A stretch of DNA of 63,315 bases, counting the filler, from Intoshia linei (taxonomy: Eukaryota; Animalia; Orthonectida), in assembly GCA_001642005.1 (NCBI GenBank). It is 6 parts of 6 records of this genome, joined end to end, with 100 filler letters (N's around TTAATTAATTAA, not from the genome) between each part and the next. Parts side by side here need not be neighbours in the genome. Positions count along the whole stretch, not along the records: positions 17,383 to 23,056 come from LWCA01001753.1; 5 more parts are not named here. One strand, given 5' to 3'. The number at the start of each line of letters is the position of its first letter. Positions within the stretch are counted from its first letter, which is position 1. The notes below the pieces were generated by a model. That model was not told the DNA's origin. It worked only from the letters and a program-made list of their open reading frames with translations, and did no database searches. A program made the translations under genes and the position numbers. Positions 5,028-56,246 of the stretch are shown piece by piece.

Positions 5028-5147
5028 AATAGAACGAATAAATAGACAGATGAATAGTGTAACTAGCTGTCAAAAATATTTCATTTACGAGAAAATCTGC
5101 TAGCATTCGCAACTAAAATTTTTTAATTTTCTAAAACATTTATATAA

Positions 5148-6409
<1,262 letters not shown>

Positions 6410-6441
6410 ATTAACGGAGTTATAAACTTTTGAATTAAAAT

Positions 6442-9400
6442 TTAATTAAAGTCATCTACACTATTTGATTTGGATTCAGAGTTATTCTTTTTCGTCGATT
6501 CAGATGATTTCGATGAGCCAGAACTGCGATAAGACTGTATCGAAGAATCGCCACTTTTAATTGAGCTTGACATTGAAGTTATCGACAGTGTGTCTTTTTG
6601 TGTCTCCAGCTAAATAAAATTTGTTTACAAATTTAAAATTACAAAAATAAAAACCGTTCTGAATAGTTCATCAAAGTGTTGGGTAAGTTTAGGAAATTCA
6701 CTTGTCAAAGATTGTATCATTTTTACAATTTCTTTTAATTTTCTTTTATTGTATCTGTAATCTATTTCATTGTGATAAAAATTACTTTCGAATGTTAAAT
6801 TATTTTCCTTTAGAAAATTTTCACCCGTGATTTTGTTTATAATTTTTTTGCAAATGTCATTTGCTCGTTCAATCTTTTTGTCAGTTTCTAATACTTTTAA
6901 TACCAATTCTTCACTGTTAGCTTCTTTATCCTTTAGTTTATTTAATGTCGTGTTGAAATCTAGACTCAATTTTTCCAATGCTAGTTCCATTGATCTAATG
7001 TTATTTTTTCTGTCTTTTAATTGGTAGGTACGCACTTTATTCTTTTCCAATAATGTGTGATATTTTTGGTCCAATTTATTTTGCTCCAAAGTTTCAGAAT
7101 CTATTTATTATTACATCAATGCATAAGGGGTCTAATTTTTTAATTTTTACATTTTTAACTTTTTTTTGTGATAAAATCCCCTTTGTCAATTATCAAATGT
7201 TGGTGGCCTCTATAAACTTAAAATAAATTTGACATTAAAAAAATAAATGTATTCAAATTATATTTTTTAGGGTTTGCGACGGAAAAAAATACCTTTTAGG
7301 TATACAGTGACATACCTACTATACCGACACACCTTTTCGGTCTAGACTCTAGACGAATTTTTAATTTAATAATTTTATTTCTTCAGATCCCTGAAAAAAA
7401 ACGCCACTTTTTTATATAATTTTTATAAATATTACCATATTTATTAACAACATTAAAACATTTTCTGAAAATTTCATTTTTTCCATTAACTAAATTCAAC
7501 GTGTTTTGCAGTGCTGTTATTTCCAAAGTTGTTTTATTTATTTTTGATTCCAAATCATCTCCTAGTTTTTGAACTTCTTCTTTTTCTTGAGCTGCCTAAT
7601 TTGGTCATATAATTCAGCGTTTCCTATCACTGGTCCGAGGACCAATACCAATGCATCATAAGAATAAAAATAACTTTGAAAAATATTATTAAAAATTTTT
7701 TATTCTTATCATGATTAGTGACCGCAAAAGTTCTGAAATAAGGTTTAGCTCTCAAAGCATTTGCTGGATCACCATGATATACAATCTGTGTACTATAAAA
7801 AACTAACCTTTATAATATAATAAGCTTGCGAACATTCTTCTTTTCCTTCAGGTGGAGCCATCGATATTGTTAATATTTCATATCTACAAAGTTAAACATT
7901 TTAAATTTATATTTTACCTTCGTTTTAGTTTATCAATAGTATTGCGTCTATCATGTAATTCAGCAGTGACTTGTGATTTTTCAGCTTCAGCAGATTTTAT
8001 TAGTGAATTTAACATTTGTTTATGTAATTCAATTTCATTTCTACGTTCTTTTGATGCAGTGTCCAATTGAAGTTTAAGGCATTTTAAATTTGTCACCTTG
8101 CTGCTTTGACCATCCAAAATTTTTTCCAATTTTTTTAATTCTAGTCGCAGTAAATTGTCCTTTACAATATTATCCTAAAAATAAGACATTCAAATTAAAA
8201 TTGATGAAATAGCTCAGAAAATTTTATAAGTAGATAATATAGATTACAGGGTTAACAAATCTTGCACTAAAATATTTTAATTTGTCTATTAAAATTAAAA
8301 AAAAGGGATAAAAGGACCATCAAATTGTGTTCAGTACATTTGTTGTAGTTTTAGATTAAAATTTTGTATTTAAATTTAGTTATTTTAAATTTTTTGAAAA
8401 CAAATATTTGAGAATTTAAAATTGCGTAGCAATGAAAAAAAATCTGAAGGAATTAATCATATAGATTTTTTTACCCATATTTCTTTATTAGAAATGTATA
8501 GATATTCAATACACATTTTTTCTTGAAATTGTAGGATGATTATTTACTTTTGTCATTTTTAATTTTAAATTATAAAATTTAATCCAATATTTGAAAAATA
8601 TTAGTTGATAATACATTAAAAATTATTTTTCACCGGGAATGCGTCGATTTCTGGGGTTGAAATTTCGTATTTATATCAACTGGAATAAGCTCTATCAGAA
8701 TAATTTTTTTTTTCATTTTCGGACACTTAATTTAATTTCACATTTCTGTTTGCATATTATAAATATTTTGGAAAAAATATATATCAAAACTAAAATGCAA
8801 TTTTGACCATGAAAGCGTCACTTATTCAGATTGAAATTTTTGGTGTGTGTTAACAGGATATAACTGTACCGCCTGTAATTTTTTTAAATTCTAGGGCTAA
8901 ATGATATTTCATTCAAAAAAATGGTAATTTGTGGTTTTGACCCTGAAATTATATTTTTTTTAAAATTAAATTTATGATAATATTTATGATTTTAAAATCC
9001 GTATCAGAGTATATATTTTTTTAATTTTCCAACTCGTTTAATTTTCAAAAGAAAATGACAATTGGGGTTTTTACCCCATAAGATGTGAGTTTGGGAGGTT
9101 GAAATTCATTTTATTATATTCGCCATATTTATTATTATATCATATTATATCATATAATTGAAATGTGGACTTTATAAAATTCTAAGATTTAATAATTATT
9201 AAAATAAACAATAACACACAGACACACACACAAACAAATATTGTGTAGCATGTTATATAAGTAAGGATAATTATATAAGTTTGAGAGCCACTCCTTTAAA
9301 AGATTTATAATAGTGAATAGTAGCATTTTTAAGTAAAATTATTATAGAATTTATTTTTCGGTAGAATTAAAAAAGTCCGCCCTCCGTAGAGCTAGTAGCT

Positions 9401-17282: not shown

Positions 17283-17382
17283 NNNNNNNNNNNNNNNNNN
17301 NNNNNNNNNNNNNNNNNNNNNNNNNNTTAATTAATTAANNNNNNNNNNNNNNNNNNNNNNNNNNNNNNNNNNNNNNNNNNNN
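17283..17382. other. Artificial contig spacer (44 N + TTAATTAATTAA + 44 N)
   Basis: The same 100-bp spacer occurs five times; the 12-mer has stops in all six frames. Confidence 0.95.
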
Positions 17383-18736
17383 TTATTTTATGATAATGAT
17401 GTTTCATCAACATCGTTATAATTCCACGTAGCTACGTAGACATTTCGATCACAAATAGTAATCAGATGGACTCTTTCTTTTCTGGTCAGATTATTTTGTG
17501 ATATAAGGTATTTTTGAGAATTACCTTTTATTATCAGGTTTTATTTTGATATTTTAAATCGATATCGTTTATAAGAATAAAAAATCTCATAAATACTAAT
17601 ATAAAACGTGCAAATCATGTAAAAGTAAATTCTTTGGTATTAAATTAAATTGAAAACCTCCATTGTTCTATTTTAGCAACAGCGCTTTTAATTATTTTAT
17701 TAAAATTTATGACCAAGCCAAGTTTCTAGTCATAAAAAAAGCTTTACATTTCAAATTGAAAATGGAACAAAATCAGTCAATATTCATGATTCTATGAAAC
17801 ATCAACCAAGGGATATAAAATATTAATTCTTCACAGGGAAGATATTACTTTTTATTGATCTGATAAAATATATAGTAAACAATTAATAAAGTACTGTAAA
17901 TAATACCTGAAAAACATGTTCTATTTTGGGAACATTGACGGGTTAAAGGTTAATATTAATGGTTCGTCAAGTTTATCATCTCGCAAAAATAGAGTACTCC
18001 ATGTCTTTTCACTATCATTCATTTCACCCAAATGTAATGATTCATTAAAAATTGTCATTATTATTAATTTTTTTGGGTCCACAGCGAAAAAGGGTTGAGA
18101 ATGCCTGCCCTATACCAATCATTCTCAACGAGCTCCACAGCAGTTTTTTGGGGTCCATGAAATATTTCATAGTTATTTACAAAAATAAAATAAAGGGAAA
18201 AATGATATTTCTGCAATGATATTAATTATTTCTAATTAACGCCATATAATTTAATATGGCGTGTATTTATCGCGTCAGTATTTTTATTATTGATTTTTCA
18301 GTATTTTAGGTGCCAGTTGACAAGGTGTCAGTATAAATAATTGATTGCCAGTATTTAAATGGAAGGGCAGTAAAAAAAATATTTTGTCAGTACTTTACAT
18401 ATACTGTCATTATTTAAATTAATGTTTTGTATAAAATGATTTTGTAAAAAGTATGGAAATAATAATTTGTTCATATAAAAAAATATTATCTGGTGTGAAC
18501 ACCTTAGAATATTTCTAATTTTTTTGTAATATGGTATCTTAATATTTCAGTTTTAACTTGAATCTCTAGTGGATGATATATTATTTCAAAAACTAGATTT
18601 TTAATTTTTATACTGACACTCCAAAATCATCAAACTTACAATTCAATTTTTTACTGAGAAAATATTATTTTATAAATTTGTTTATTTTTATATACTTTTT
18701 TGTTGAGTTACTTACAATTTTCGATGAATACTGATC

Positions 18737-19145
18737 TATACCTTTTATAATTCAATTTTGCAACTAAGATACCAACTTTTTGAGTTAATTCACAACTATT
18801 GATAACTTGACCAATCTTATAACGTGTTATACGTAAAGTCTAAATATGTACCTTATCTTTTTTAATAAAATCCAAAATTTTGTATGTGTTAATTGGTTAA
18901 GTTATTTACATATAAAAATATTTATTGTAATAGTTATACAATTTAATTTACAGTTTGAATGTTCCATCAAATGTTACCTCGGCTAATTGCTGAATAATAG
19001 CGTTCTATATGATTTGTAAATCCAAGTAATTTTATTGGAGTGATACAATAAATACAATTTTAATTAAAAAGATAAGATAATGTTAAAAAGTTTATTATTT
19101 ATAAAAAATGTATCTTAGTTGCAAAATAGAGTTATAAAAGGTATA
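18737..19145. mobile_element. TA-flanked MITE with about 35-bp TIRs
   Basis: TATACCTTTTATAATTCAATTTTGCAACTAAGATAC vs GTATCTTAGTTGCAAAATAGAGTTATAAAAGGTATA; embedded in degenerate TACTGACA-containing repeats (about 18270-19300). Confidence 0.65.
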
Positions 19146-19953
19146 ATTAATATATTTACTGACAAAAATGCAATTATGTATTGACAAAAAAGCAATTAAA
19201 AACTGACAAATATGTAATTGAATACTGACAATTTTATGTTGAAAATACAGAAAATTTTTTATTAAAAACTCAGTATTTTAATTAAATACTGACAAATTAA
19301 TTACTCCCCATTTAAGATCTATTTTCCATTAAGACTAAATTTAATTGAATATATTATATACTCAACATTAAAGTAAAAATGGTTATATAGTTTGTACAAA
19401 CAGCAGCCGATGTGGATTTTTTAATTTTAGGAACGATTAATCGATTTATTGAAGACAATGAGTGTATGATCATAAAAACAATCAAATTATAGTTACAAAC
19501 CTAAAAAAGTCATAAAAAGTGAAATTTTAAATAACTGTAGTATATAGTTTTTTTCATCATATACTCGGATGAAGGAGTAGTTTTCCAAACTTTTTTCATT
19601 TGGATCGAGTGTCAACAAGTGCAATTTTTAGGGATTGCGATTTATGATAATGATAATGATTATGATTTTCAAAACTATTCCAAAATGTATGTTTTATAAA
19701 ATTTTGCGACTTTGTTAATTTTAAAAAAAAGAAGGGTAATTTGGGTTTTGACTATGAAGAGGTACGTTTCTGAAGCTGAGATTTAAGACAATGTTAATGA
19801 CTTTCATTTTTTTGGGGTCGACAGGTATTTTTCAATGTCATCATAGGGGTCCAAGCGAAAAAGGGTTGATACTGCCTGCCCTACACGAGTAGCGTTGAAA
19901 AAAAATTTGACTACCTGTATGGGACTAAACCACTGTATAATATAAAATAATTA

Positions 19954-20468
<515 letters not shown>

Positions 20469-20575
20469 TTTTTTTAAATTATATTTTAACGTTGTAGTTC
20501 AATAAAGTTTTATACATTTTAATTTTACTATTTTACGTCCGTAGTTTTGGTTACACAACTTTATATATTTTTAAA

Positions 20576-22738
20576 ATGAATAAAGACGATTATTTTTGTT
20601 TTTTGGAGTCTGAAATTGAAAGAATTGGTAAAGTTGACATAAATTTACCAAATTTTGAAAATTTACACAATTACAACGATTACCAATTAAAAGATAATAT
20701 CGATGTCAACTATGATTTGAGCTATGTTGGCATATTGGATCAATTGGAAATGGACTTGGATAAGTTTAATTCAAAAATCTTGTTAAAAGTTTATCATGAA
20801 ATTTCAAATCAAATAAAATTAAACTTGAAGGAATTTGAACACAAAAACATTTCTACTACTAATTACGAGCAAATTTATTTACATGAAGCTGTTTGTCGTT
20901 TGAAGACTTTACCCATTAAGAAACAATTGCAATTATTTTGTAATGACTATTACCAGGAAGCAAAGTTTAATTCAGAGTCTTTTCAACGCAGTAAAATTGT
21001 TAGATTCAGCTTTGATACAAATTCACCGGATGATTTTAATGATAAAATTGTTGATGTTGAATACCAAAAGGATTTTTTTGTTGATGTAGATGTGGATGAT
21101 GAAGAATAAAATTTTTGTAAATTGTAAAAATTATATTTTAGTTTTTTGTTTAATTACAAAAATTCATTATTATTCTAGTGGTGTAATGGTTGAATTTGTT
21201 TATAGGTGATAATCATTTCAATCGAATGTTATCATAACATATTTCATATATCTGTGGTATATCATGTTCCGTGTGAAGTTTAAGAAATTTTTTTTGGTTC
21301 ATTCTTATATGTAATGTTTCTTTCTATATATAGTCTTTTTTATTTTATATCGTTTGTTTCATTCCTTTGTCTATGGATAATGCACTATTGCAAATTACAT
21401 CATATACAATGTATATTATACATGTATCTATATTTTTGGTAATTTACATTAGTGTTAGTTTGAAAAATTATTTCAATTACATGTACTACAAAGAACTACA
21501 ACCTGTACTCTATAGTGTCTGTGTAGTTATAAATTCGCGCAAATTTTAGGAATTGAAAAAAATTTAGAACCAAATTATATGTCACTAGACATCATTATAT
21601 TAATATTTAAAAAAATTATTGAATAAGTTATAATGATAAAAATTTGATTTCGTTCAATTTTTTATATTCCAATTTAGTTACAAAAAAGAAACCAAAATTT
21701 TAGCAAAAGATTATTATCTGTCGTCAAAATATTTACTTACGTTAAATGTAGTCATTTTTGGTAATTTCTATTGATATTGATATCAAATTTGAGTCTTTTG
21801 AATATCATAGATATTTTTATATTTAAAGTGTAGAATCATTAAACAGGATTCAAAATTTAAAATATTCTACATTTAATAAATTACAATTTTGTTTATTTTA
21901 TAATGTAAATTAAAAAGTGGAATTAAGGCAATTTTATTGTCCATTTAAGTAACATACAGGACCCAAAAATTTTGTATTTAATTTTATTTTTATATAGATT
22001 AAAAAGAACATATTGTACCAGATCACCATTCTAAGATCTCGACAAAATTTTTGCAAAAGGGTGGCCTAATTTTTTAAAAATTAAGAATTTAAGAAAATAT
22101 ATTGTCAATTTCATAATTATATTATTATTTCTTAATTTTCAAATTTAAACTGTCAAATGAAAAAAGAATAAACTGTTTTAGAATTTTTAGTATCGTAAAA
22201 ATTAGTCTTGTAGAATATATAATTTGATGGTTGAACATTATTATTGGTTTGATGAAGTGGATTTTTTTCATAAGATTTCGTAGAATCTGATTTTTGAAAA
22301 CAATATCGGTGTAACACAATTTTTCCATGAGGAATTGGAATCCTTGAAATGGTATTTTTGATTAAATTTTATTAGTGGTGGGATTTTTGAAATGGTAAAT
22401 TTTAAATATTATAATATCATCATATTTTTATAGTAATAACAAACATATATCAAATACAGGTATGTCTCATTTTTTTTCAGGAAATCGTGGGAAATTGTTA
22501 AAATCCCAGGAATTTTGTCCCGGTTTTTTTCCCTGACAGAATCACTACATGTAGTGTATTATACTTATAATTTCTTAGGACATGCAGATTGTGGGAAAAG
22601 TACAACCATAGGAAGGTTATTGAGTGATTTAAAAGTTCTCAAAAGCAATGAATTACATAAAAACATTAAAGAAACTGTTCGTCATGGGAAGTCATCGTTC
22701 GAATATGCTTATGTAATGGACACATGTGAATATGAACG
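20576..22738 (+). CDS. HBS1L: HBS1-like translational GTPase, 5' part (N-terminal ORF 20576-21109; exons 21678-21760 and 22579-22738), truncated by contig end
   Basis: Spliced LNVVIFG|HADCGKSTTIGRLL...HGKSSFEYAYVMDTCEYER matches the HBS1/eRF3/EF1A G1 region, with the KxSFxYAxV pattern typical of HBS1. The donor joining the N-terminal ORF to these exons is inferred. Confidence 0.75.
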
Positions 22739-22980
22739 GTAATGTGTATTATAACTAGAGTAGAAAAAAACGAGTAAAGTGATCGAAATACTCTTTTACA
22801 CTAAAATGATTGACGTATGCTCTTTTTAATACAAATGTTGCATGATTACTCGGAATGTAAAAATGTACTCGTTTTTCAATTTATAGTGCTCGATTTTTTC
22901 AAAATTTACTTGCTCTTTTGTGTTTACCATATAAGACTTATAATAAGTAAACATTTTGTATTATAATAATAGTATAATAA

Positions 22981-23056
22981 CACTGTCCGACAAAATTGAC
23001 GTTTTTTTTTGATCTGGATAAAATTATAATAGTATTATAGATAATTTCAGGGTGAA
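22981..23056 (+). repeat. Transposon terminus beginning CACTGTCCGACAAAATTGACG, inverted copy at about 55284-55358
   Basis: About 75 bp of near-identical inverted match; both copies lie at contig ends. Confidence 0.6.
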
Positions 23057-23156
23057 NNNNNNNNNNNNNNNNNNNNNNNNNNNNNNNNNNNNNNNNNNNN
23101 TTAATTAATTAANNNNNNNNNNNNNNNNNNNNNNNNNNNNNNNNNNNNNNNNNNNN
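23057..23156. other. Artificial contig spacer
   Basis: 44 N + TTAATTAATTAA + 44 N. Confidence 0.95.
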
Positions 23157-23590
23157 GGATATTGTATTCAGTTTTTTGACATGTTTAGCTCCAAGCATAA
23201 CTCGAACAATCTCTTTGGTTGCTAGGTGCAGCAACTCCTCGGCAATGGTGTGAGGTTTCTTGGCTTTGGCAATTCTGAGAGCCACCAAATATGAAGCTTC
23301 AATGGCTGCCATATTTTGCTGTTGATATTGACCGACAAAATCGAGCCTGCTTTTTTTAACACAATCAGCTTTATTTATAAAATATTGGACATCCTTGCCC
23401 GCTAAATTATGATGTTTAGTGTTAAAATGACGTTTCATTTTGTTGGGCTTATGGATTCAGCTCACATAATTTCACAGCAAATGATACATTGTGGCTTTTC
23501 AATTCCTGCCTCAACTATAAAAGTAAACCCATATTTTAAAAATTCTTCAGTGTACTTTCTTTTCTTAATATTTTTTTCTCGATTCATCAT
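23157..23590 (-). mobile_element. hAT Buster/Charlie (ZBED5-like) transposase N-terminal fragment, frameshifted
   Basis: KPQCIICCE BED finger, MKRHFNTKH, EASYLVALRIAKAKKPHTIAEELL. Confidence 0.85.
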
Positions 23591-23991: not shown

Positions 23992-24478
23992 CCAAAATAC
24001 GATCTAATTGTAGCACGAGCAGTGAAATCTTTAGCACGTCCACCAAATTTAATCAATTGTAATTTTTTGCAATCGAAATGAGTTAAATATTCCCACTATA
24101 TTATTTAACGCAATTTAAAAATTATCAACCTTTAGAATGTCATTCCATGCTTTTTCGTTATTTATATTGTGTATATTTACAATACTTGTCATATCTTGTG
24201 ATTTTATAAAATCTTTAGACCATTTCCACCCCTTTCGACGCATAGCATTCCAAAACATTTGTTCAGATGGGTAGATCCAACGGGATTTATCGTTTTTCAT
24301 TATTGTTGATATTTGTCGTTTCTTAGAAAGTTTGAATGGTTGGTCTGGTGAGGGTTGTTGGTTAGGTTCTTCCATCTTGTAAATATGCAAAAATTATAAA
24401 AAATATTACTTTATTTAAAGGGCACAATACATGCCTTTTTTCTTTATTCATCATAGGACATTGATCACGTTCGGACAT
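23992..24478 (-). CDS. HCCS: Holocytochrome c synthase, first 3 coding exons (24410-24478, 24130-24375, 23992-24095); 3' part missing
   Basis: N-terminal CP motifs (QCPMM, LCPLN), [71 protein letters not shown]. Confidence 0.92.
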
Positions 24479-25544: not shown

Positions 25545-31609
<6,065 letters not shown>

Positions 31610-49790: not shown

Positions 49791-50579
49791 AAAGAAGATA
49801 ATTCCCTTAAGCGTTAGTAATTTGTGGTTGGAATAAGAGGTTTTTAAGAAAAGCATTAAAAAAGGATATTTTTCCATTAAGGGCTGGAAAATTAGATTTT
49901 TCATTTTTGGTTTGATGAAGTGGATTTTTGAAAAGAATATCGGTGTACGTCAATTTTTCCATGAGGACTTGAAATGGTATTTTTGATTAAATGTTATTAG
50001 TGGTGGGATTTTTAAAATGGTAAAGTTTAAATATTATAATTTATTATATAATCATATTTTCATAGTAATAACAAACATATATAAAATACAGGTATGTCTT
50101 AATTTTTTTCGGGAAATCACTAATACTAATACAATGTATTGTATGTATACTTATTATTATAATTAGTTATAACATTATAACGATACTTTTTCAATCTTTA
50201 ATAATTTCAATTGATTCTTCGACATCTAAATTATAAAATAAATTGAATAGTACAAAAATAACAAATTCTGTAACGAAGTGACCATAGTAAAAAATCTTCA
50301 GAATTCAAAATTCATAATCTGATTTTGAAATTATGGATACTCCACCATCTAATAATCTATCTAACAATGAAAAAAATATAGATTTGGCTTTAAAAAACGT
50401 TGAAACATTGTTTGTCTTGTCTAGTAAAATTGATATGGAGTCAGAGTTGGATTTTTTAGAAAAATACAAACAAGACAAAAAGTCTAAATATTTGTAGATT
50501 AAATTTACTTTTAAAAATTTCTCATCATAGTCGTTTAATTAAATTATATCACCATCATTTAATATATAATAGTAAACTA

Positions 50580-55254: not shown

Positions 55255-55359
55255 ATTCATACCACAAGAGTTACATCATTTTGTTCACCCTGAAATTATC
55301 TATAATACGATTATAATTTTATCCAGATCAAAAAAAACGTCAATTTTGTCGGACAGTGA

Positions 55360-56246
55360 TATTGAAAACAAATTTTTTAATAAAGAAATTTATTTTTCCT
55401 TCTCAATGAGAAATTCGGGCCTGATATTTTTTACAGAGGTTTTTAATTCTTGGACGTATTTTTAAGGGACATACACGAAGTTCTTCTTCTACCGACAGCA
55501 GCTTTGCCCGTTTCTTATGCTTAATTGCTGTCAATGCAAAAAATCCCAATTCACAAAAGTAGGATGTTGAAAATTGCATTAGAATTTTTAAGGCTTTATC
55601 TGCAATTATGGGATATTCCTTTTCAACTAATAACCAAAATTCATAAAGATTTAAGTTACCATATTTCAATTTTAAATGTCTGTCACTTGAAATACTAGAA
55701 AGTTTTCATTTCAATTTTCTTACAACTTTCTAATTAAAAAAATCTTATATCTTAAATCTTATAAGTAACATTCTAAATTTTTTCAAGTCCTTTTTTTGAA
55801 GAGTTAATAACGCTCTTTGCCAAGATCCCCATCTCTCCACAGGGAGTAAGAAACACACGGAATTTAGCCGGTAAAACCAGTTGCCTCCCTCACACTACGA
55901 AGAAGAATCCAGGCCCGTGAGAGATAACGTTTTAGTTAAATATCATTATATAGAGGTAAGTAACTTATTTAAATCATTTCAAGAGAGTTGGGCCATTAAA
56001 ACCCACTTTTTCTACAATATTTCTCATAAAGATAATCTGAATTATTATTACTTTTTAACATCATTTTTCAGGTTCCCATACTCACAACGTATACTTTTAT
56101 TAAAACTTATTTGATTTAAATTTGAAAAATGATGTTGTTTTATTGCATACAACAGTAATTTAGAAAAACTTTAAATTAAAAAATATTACATTTATATTTC
56201 ACGAAACCCCAATTAAATTTCGCGGAACACGGGTTGAGAACCACTG
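55360..56246 (-). mobile_element. Deleted hAT Buster/Charlie element with transposase C-terminus
   Basis: 5' TIR CAGTGGTTCTCAACC at 56246 (minus); ORF 55403-55669 EFWLLVEKEYPIIADKALKILMQFSTSYFCELGF...RPRIKNLC..QARISH*. Confidence 0.85.

Follow-up and report, generated by a model that had tools for sequence, protein, structure and literature searches.

Does the orthonectid Intoshia linei separate Ski7 from Hbs1 by alternative splicing of one gene, or by some other route? According to Brunkard and Baker (PMC6143672), nearly every eukaryote produces SKI7 by alternative splicing, and the original prediction for this locus was of the same kind: a 177-aa open reading frame (ORF) was taken to be the N-terminal part of HBS1, with an alternative 5′ splice site switching between a short Ski7-like product and a GTPase-containing Hbs1. 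We examined this in a window of 63,315 nt, that is, the whole stretch of DNA analysed, which is AT-rich (about 25% GC) and consists of six parts of assembly GCA_001642005.1 joined by 100-letter gaps. The ORF and the GTPase exons lie on the same 5,674-nt contig (17383-23056), flanked by two of these gaps.

The ORF is intronless, occupies positions 20576-21109 (+) and encodes a Ski7-like orphan protein of 177 aa (P0001); a stop-free run this long has a chance of about 1e-8 per position at the local composition. As predicted originally, it contains IVRFSFDTNSPDD at 20996-21034 (residues 141-153), an acidic C-terminal tail (net -10 over residues 152-177) and a TAA stop at 21107-21109, and the first HBS1 GTPase exon follows 568 nt further on. 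The stop codon overlaps an AATAAA at 21105-21110 (+), which is the sole A[A/T]TAAA in 21091-21700 and likely a poly(A) signal. Homologue searches recovered nothing but the ORF itself, both among 27 candidates and among 1.84 billion representatives. Relatives were likewise found in none of 48 pattern hits in metagenome contigs, and the Atlas searches returned nothing above 0.78 by features or TM 0.45. Pfam assigned no family at E values up to 10, hence no HBS1 N-terminal family and no UBA-like domain, and in a phmmer search against solved-structure chains the ORF never matched a SKI7 chain. A single-sequence structure model of the protein was unusable (pLDDT 33.5).

Transcript evidence came from three public runs of a single study (X1, X2 and X3), whose recorded kind is unstated and which hold 25-30% of the words of the stretch. 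We read them as cDNA because their contigs skip four GT..AG introns, three in DIMT1 and one of 818 nt in HBS1; such contigs reveal neither strand nor exact ends, and rare variants drop out of them. In a close survey of 20490-21960, which matched 11 records, each run held one free-standing contig over the ORF (20540-21096, 20581-21106 and 20594-21043; overall 20540-21106). In all three runs this contig matches the genome over its full length, without differences or loose ends, and crosses position 20991 unspliced with more than 31 letters on either side. No joint leaves the ORF in any of the three runs, and no joint or loose end leads into the ORF contigs. With its stop at the AATAAA and contigs ending at 21043-21106, the ORF displays the animal-SKI7 trait of having no GTPase domain. 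Given a Ski7 origin, the ORF is probably its own transcription unit as its main form.

Between 21110 and 21675, a region that includes a micro-exon proposed in the original prediction, contigs cover only a short low-depth piece at 21402-21433, and this hole alone proves nothing. Several candidates were set aside: an X3 contig piece at 21154-21267 with a long loose end, present in the first survey and not in the second, was dropped, and we discarded a CT..TC joint inside the 22255-22486 repeat as well as two contigs of 59-60 nt with four differences at 21020-21054. Depths were consulted for a single purpose, to check that the 21640-21689 bin is explained by the listed contigs, and not for expression ranking.

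A DIMT1-type rRNA dimethylase gene lies head-to-head with the ORF. Its first four exons (19955-20468, -) are separated by introns of 49, 33 and 34 nt, which contigs skip in all three runs; the shortest introns in the window measure 33-49 nt. The ATG of the ORF and that of DIMT1 are 107 nt apart on opposite strands, and the interval 20487-20539, which separates the ends of the DIMT1 contigs (20475-20486) from the first ORF contig start (20540), is a likely shared two-way promoter. The last DIMT1 exon in the window corresponds to Pfam profile positions 74-125 of 263, and a search of the window for the rest of the gene gave one match, at chance level. After the fourth exon comes an intron of over 2.5 kb that extends into the left gap; it contains a 36-nt inverted pair (18737-18772 and 19110-19145, 94%) and a 41-nt direct pair (18075-18115 and 19847-19886, 90%).

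Of the alternatives, the one that survives best is an ordinary vertebrate-type layout, in which an HBS1 5′ exon outside the window would be spliced either to 20544, making the ORF a Ski7 terminal exon with polyadenylation after 21110, or to 21678, yielding Hbs1. This is the human arrangement, and the genome offers an entry point for it, namely a latent pyrimidine-rich acceptor at 20515-20544 (+) that ends in TAG (20542-20544), is open in frame to the ATG and has the same phase 2 as the entry at 21678, although phase agreement has a one-in-three chance of arising anyway. However, use of the acceptor is seen in no contig of the three runs: the X1 ORF contig, which starts at 20540, carries nothing but genomic sequence through the AG at 20544, loose 5′ ends occur on none of the three ORF contigs, and the X2 HBS1 contig continues without interruption through the end of the upstream exon. 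We consider this layout unlikely as an account of the locus; the acceptor could be a relic of a vertebrate-type terminal exon, or it could still be rarely used.

The relationship of the ORF to Ski7 was assessed with the metazoan Patch-4-like (S3) consensus of Brunkard and Baker (PMC6143672), with P allowed beside aliphatic residues at the ninth position. The ORF matches 10 of 17 consensus positions over residues 141-157 of 177, i.e. near its C-terminus. No other of the 35,554 stop-free six-frame positions in the window scores as high (the runner-up reaches 8), and only 3 of 20,001 shuffles of the ORF protein reach at least 10 of 17; at the composition of the protein, the F.F...SPDD core is expected by chance in about 1e-5 per protein. 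Compared by eye, 9 of 13 core residues are identical to those of a zebrafish ski7 peptide (PMC7924785), and F146, P151, D152 and D153 are spaced like F207, P212, D213 and D214, the patch-4 contacts in yeast (PMC4942675). The yeast Ski7 patch-4 residues contact Csl4 (PMC4942675), and the zebrafish Patch-4 peptide pulled down seven of ten exosome subunits (PMC7924785). Judged from the sequence, the Patch-4-like motif of the ORF is in excess of chance.

Other hallmarks of Ski7 are missing. A regular-expression search of the ORF for the SKI7-like motif, [RK]xxxFxxx[LIVM] (RxxxFxxxL), gave no match, and the metazoan SKI7-like consensus (A+PShFAahL) is matched at 4 of 10 positions at best, in a three-way tie. 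In human cells it is the RxxxFxxxL motif, not Patch 4, that was necessary and sufficient for exosome binding (PMC5389692), and this motif is reported to be weak in Drosophila and budding yeast (PMC7924785). The helix that follows SPDD (IVKxNQ), whose human counterpart contacts SKI2 (PMC11540850), is also absent from the ORF, which reads FNDKIVDV at this point, with 0 of 8 residues identical to the zebrafish peptide, and has the acidic tail instead of a helix. We file the protein as Ski7-like, not as a SKI7 member, because two hallmark elements, RxxxFxxxL and the post-SPDD helix, fail.

These absences would be expected if the ORF were an unrelated fast-evolving gene whose motif arose by convergence, as an exosome-binding patch, or by coincidence, a reading that also agrees with the lack of any homologue, family or fold match and with transcription of the ORF apart from HBS1. 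It is nevertheless an improbable reading, given the rarity of the motif by chance (3 of 20,001 shuffles, and about 1e-5 per protein for the core), its location near the C-terminus and the distance of just 568 nt between the ORF and an HBS1 exon. Motif statistics, C-terminal placement and position in the HBS1 locus instead support the originally proposed Ski7-like nature of the 177-aa product, and the ORF is very probably of Ski7 origin.

The HBS1-type GTPase exons predicted at 21678 and 22579 proved to be real and are joined across the 818-nt GT..AG intron (21761-22578, +) in all three runs. The first (21678-21760, +; 83 nt) leads into the G1 motif and is open only for phase-2 or phase-0 entry; the second (22579-22738, +) carries the G domain from the G1 motif to switch I. 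Against solved structures the second exon matched Hbs1 chains first (E 8.5e-10 to 1e-8), followed by eEF1A (6e-6) and eRF3 (0.37), and this G domain is nearer to Hbs1 than to eEF1A, eRF3 or CysN. Pfam returned GTP_EFTU at E 2.4e-4, under the family cut-off on 54 aa. A search for longer proteins with the GTPase exon found none at E 0.001; at E 10 it found 13 of 29 candidates, with CysN names or domain sets where these were given, and no HBS1 was among the four of these 13 that were examined.

No further HBS1 exon was found in the window after 22738. The HBS1 contigs contain about 970-1,320 further letters downstream of the window exons, and the loose letters past 22738 keep the frame, by hand translation, into an RGxT motif that we take to be the switch-I motif. 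Repeats occur in the HBS1 introns at 22255-22486 (copy at 49923-50118, 86%), within the 818-nt intron, and at 22976-23056 (copy at 55284-55363, 96%), and both are matched by many contigs of the three runs.

The 5′ partner of the first GTPase exon in the contigs is not the ORF. In X2, a 2,877-nt contig bridges exon 21678 to 1,548 other letters, and contigs of X1 (1,582 nt) and X3 (1,519 nt) have a 30-letter overlap with the exon and the same adjoining sequence as X2; by the 31-letter rule the outside join is bridged in X2 only, i.e. in one of the three runs. The upstream letters are stop-free in the frame of exon 21678 (hand translation; phase-2 entry). A search of the window allowing up to three mismatches did not find them, their parts matched only at chance level, and an upstream 30-mer had no exact match in metagenome contigs. 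A site at 19753 that resembles the end of the upstream exon was rejected; it is inside a repeat and has no acceptor. Because the GTPase exon joins about 1,500 nt of sequence that the window did not yield, the ORF is not the N-terminus of HBS1 in the assemblies, contrary to its proposed role. The related claim that the GTPase exons have no start of their own is true within the window, but the contigs reveal that the 5′ part of the mRNA exists outside it.

Two features of the HBS1 contigs merit separate mention. About 1,490-1,550 nt precede the GTPase exon, which is long for an HBS1 N-terminus, as roughly half of this would meet the need of an animal HBS1 N-terminus; it may represent an extended N-terminal region, a gene fusion or the transcript of a neighbouring gene that overlaps. 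In addition, the HBS1 contigs of X1 and X3 break at 21676-21705, which suggests a second predecessor ending in AG (a retained intron or another exon), a second successor, or a variant at 21706.

Elsewhere the window contains genes for a rhodopsin-family receptor, a Na/Ca exchanger with Calx-beta, CCDC39 and actin. The segment 15196-16299 is an inverted partial duplicate relative to 5146-7316, comprising the actin 5′ part (94%) and the 3′ end of CCDC39 (96%), a neighbouring coiled-coil gene, and the two pieces do not keep their original order. Beyond the right-hand gap lie a cytochrome c heme lyase exon (24115-24393, -) and a TPR and metallophosphatase gene, PP5-like (26165-31415, +). Three frames, at 23157-23456 (-), 28795-29284 (+) and 55403-55705 (-), presumably resemble pieces of hAT-type transposases, as judged by eye; Pfam gave a weak zinc-finger match for 28795-29079 only and nothing for the frames at 23157-23456 (-) and 55403-55705 (-). 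Searches of the stretch found no tRNA and no credible Rfam family.

Because the next HBS1 exon and the remainder of DIMT1 are missing from the window, the gaps either hide real exons or join wrong contigs. In the first case, the left gap (17283-17382) may hide DIMT1 3′ exons together with HBS1 5′ exons, and the right gap (23057-23156) may hide HBS1 3′ exons. The second case would be part of a broken or misassembled locus, with the 5.7-kb contig misplaced or duplicated, or with an HBS1 mRNA made in trans or from a foreign 5′ partner. Consistent with such a locus, the window lacks the HBS1 5′ and 3′ exons and the DIMT1 3′ exons, the right end of the contig is a repeat, another partial duplication is found in the window, and the upstream sequence of about 1,500 nt has roughly twice the presumed length of an animal HBS1 N-terminus. 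However, the window exons of all three genes are matched by contigs free of other letters, the simpler explanation is that gaps of unknown size border the contig on both sides, and even a misplaced contig would leave the ORF beside the GTPase exon, so that we regard a broken locus as a doubtful explanation.

Least probable is the originally predicted splice switch, in which the ORF is the HBS1 N-terminus and a donor at 20991 (with the micro-exon at 21550-21580) selects Ski7 or Hbs1: the GTAAAA donor-like site (20991-20996, phase 1), the frame-keeping 31-nt AG..GT micro-exon and short introns do exist in the genome, and the X1 and X3 contig breaks at 21676-21705 may mean a second upstream partner, but no joint uses either element, 20991 is read through in all three runs, the GTPase exon has another partner, no HBS1 N-terminal family in Pfam matches the ORF, and the junctions of this model end in ACGCA or TATAT rather than AG, so that breaks would be expected at 21678, not 21676. 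A rare isoform of this type is possible because contigs drop rare variants. The prediction had itself named, as evidence against it, a separate gene that is never spliced to the GTPase exons and lacks similarity to Ski7 motifs; the ORF does appear as a separate unit and was not seen spliced to the GTPase exons, but similarity to a Ski7 motif is present.

We favour, with some reserve, the explanation that the ORF goes back to an ancestral HBS1/SKI7 gene, whose Ski7-specific exon has turned into an intronless mini-gene that the HBS1 mRNA skips. Transcription of the mini-gene would start near 20540, from a two-way promoter of roughly 55-65 nt common to the ORF and DIMT1, and would end after the AATAAA at 21105, in which case the mini-gene and HBS1 mRNAs would have no exon in common. 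The HBS1 mRNA would join 21678 to different upstream sequence and thereby skip the ORF. In the simplest cis reading, the HBS1 5′ exons would be located on the far side of the left gap, over 4.3 kb away from 21678, and the HBS1 intron in between would contain the mini-gene together with DIMT1 or at least its front part. The protein is predicted to dock on the exosome cap subunit Csl4 via F146-P151-D152-D153, and its helical N-terminal two thirds may contain diverged Ski3 and Rrp43/Mtr3 contacts; with these predicted contacts it would act like a Ski7 adaptor that lacks both the GTPase and the UBA. If the ORF is of Ski7 origin and forms its own unit, we incline to the view that it still provides a working exosome-SKI bridge. 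A more radical version appears improbable: the gene would have been physically split without duplication, with the Ski7 exon captured by the DIMT1 promoter to give a 177-aa adaptor docking by Patch 4 alone, and with the GTPase exons taking their 5′ half of about 1,500 nt from a distant locus or a foreign gene, by trans-splicing or a new fusion.

Comparison with known Ski7/Hbs1 systems places the proposed mini-gene between several of them. In human HBS1L, Ski7 arises from exon 5, an alternative last exon that has a poly(A) site of its own and is spliced to the shared exons 1-4 (PMC4942675, PMC6143672, PMC3597508). Like the ORF product, human HBS1L isoform 3 (HBS1LV3, SKI7) and zebrafish ski7 are GTPase-less and carry a Patch-4-like motif near the C-terminus (PMC5389692, PMC4942675, PMC11540850, PMC7924785), and, as with the ORF and its likely signal, the specific part is one exon directly before the GTPase exons with its own poly(A) site. 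In these vertebrates, however, that exon is spliced to exons 1-4, which supply a UBA-like N-terminus, whereas no shared exon was seen for the ORF; the vertebrate proteins, moreover, have 576-632 aa and contain both RxxxFxxxL and the IVKxNQ helix, whereas the ORF has 177 aa and neither element. In the SKI7/HBS1 gene of Candida albicans, the Ski7 mRNA comes from an internal promoter in an HBS1 intron and has its own ATG, as we propose here, but it replaces the first exon only and continues into the shared GTPase region, whereas the ORF transcript ends earlier (PMC3597508). The SKI7 genes of Saccharomyces and Schizosaccharomyces resemble the ORF in being separate and unspliced, with the N-terminal exons lost and a new start codon, but they derive from gene duplication and keep a GTPase-like domain (PMC3597508), whereas the ORF sits in the HBS1 locus and the window contains no sign of a duplicated GTPase.

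An invertebrate Ski7 is not new in itself, because Brunkard and Baker list SKI7-like proteins in several invertebrate phyla (PMC6143672). Compared with Hbs1/HBS1L, the downstream exons described here are alike in the G1 and switch-I region, and the N-terminal part is unusually long (about 1,500 nt). In the literature covered, we found no description of a layout that has an internal start as well as an internal end. Marshall et al. 2018 (PNAS), the broadest survey, was outside that scope; it reportedly treats several kinds of Ski7-like protein and may include a similar case.

Set beside these systems, the layout would pair an internal start of the Candida type with an internal end of the vertebrate type. 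Known separations of Ski7 and Hbs1 proceed by alternative splicing, by an alternative first exon as in Candida, or by gene duplication; if our explanation is true, a nested unit that starts and ends on its own would add another route, which separates the two fully without duplication and without any shared exon. A natural Ski7 of 177 aa that lacks the UBA, the RxxxFxxxL helix and the helix in contact with SKI2 would, in addition, put to the test the minimal requirements of an exosome-SKI bridge, a question on which human (PMC5389692) and zebrafish (PMC7924785) data conflict with regard to the sufficiency of Patch 4. Lastly, the locus suggests where the "missing" Ski7 of fast-evolving animals may be found, namely among short orphan ORFs within HBS1 introns.
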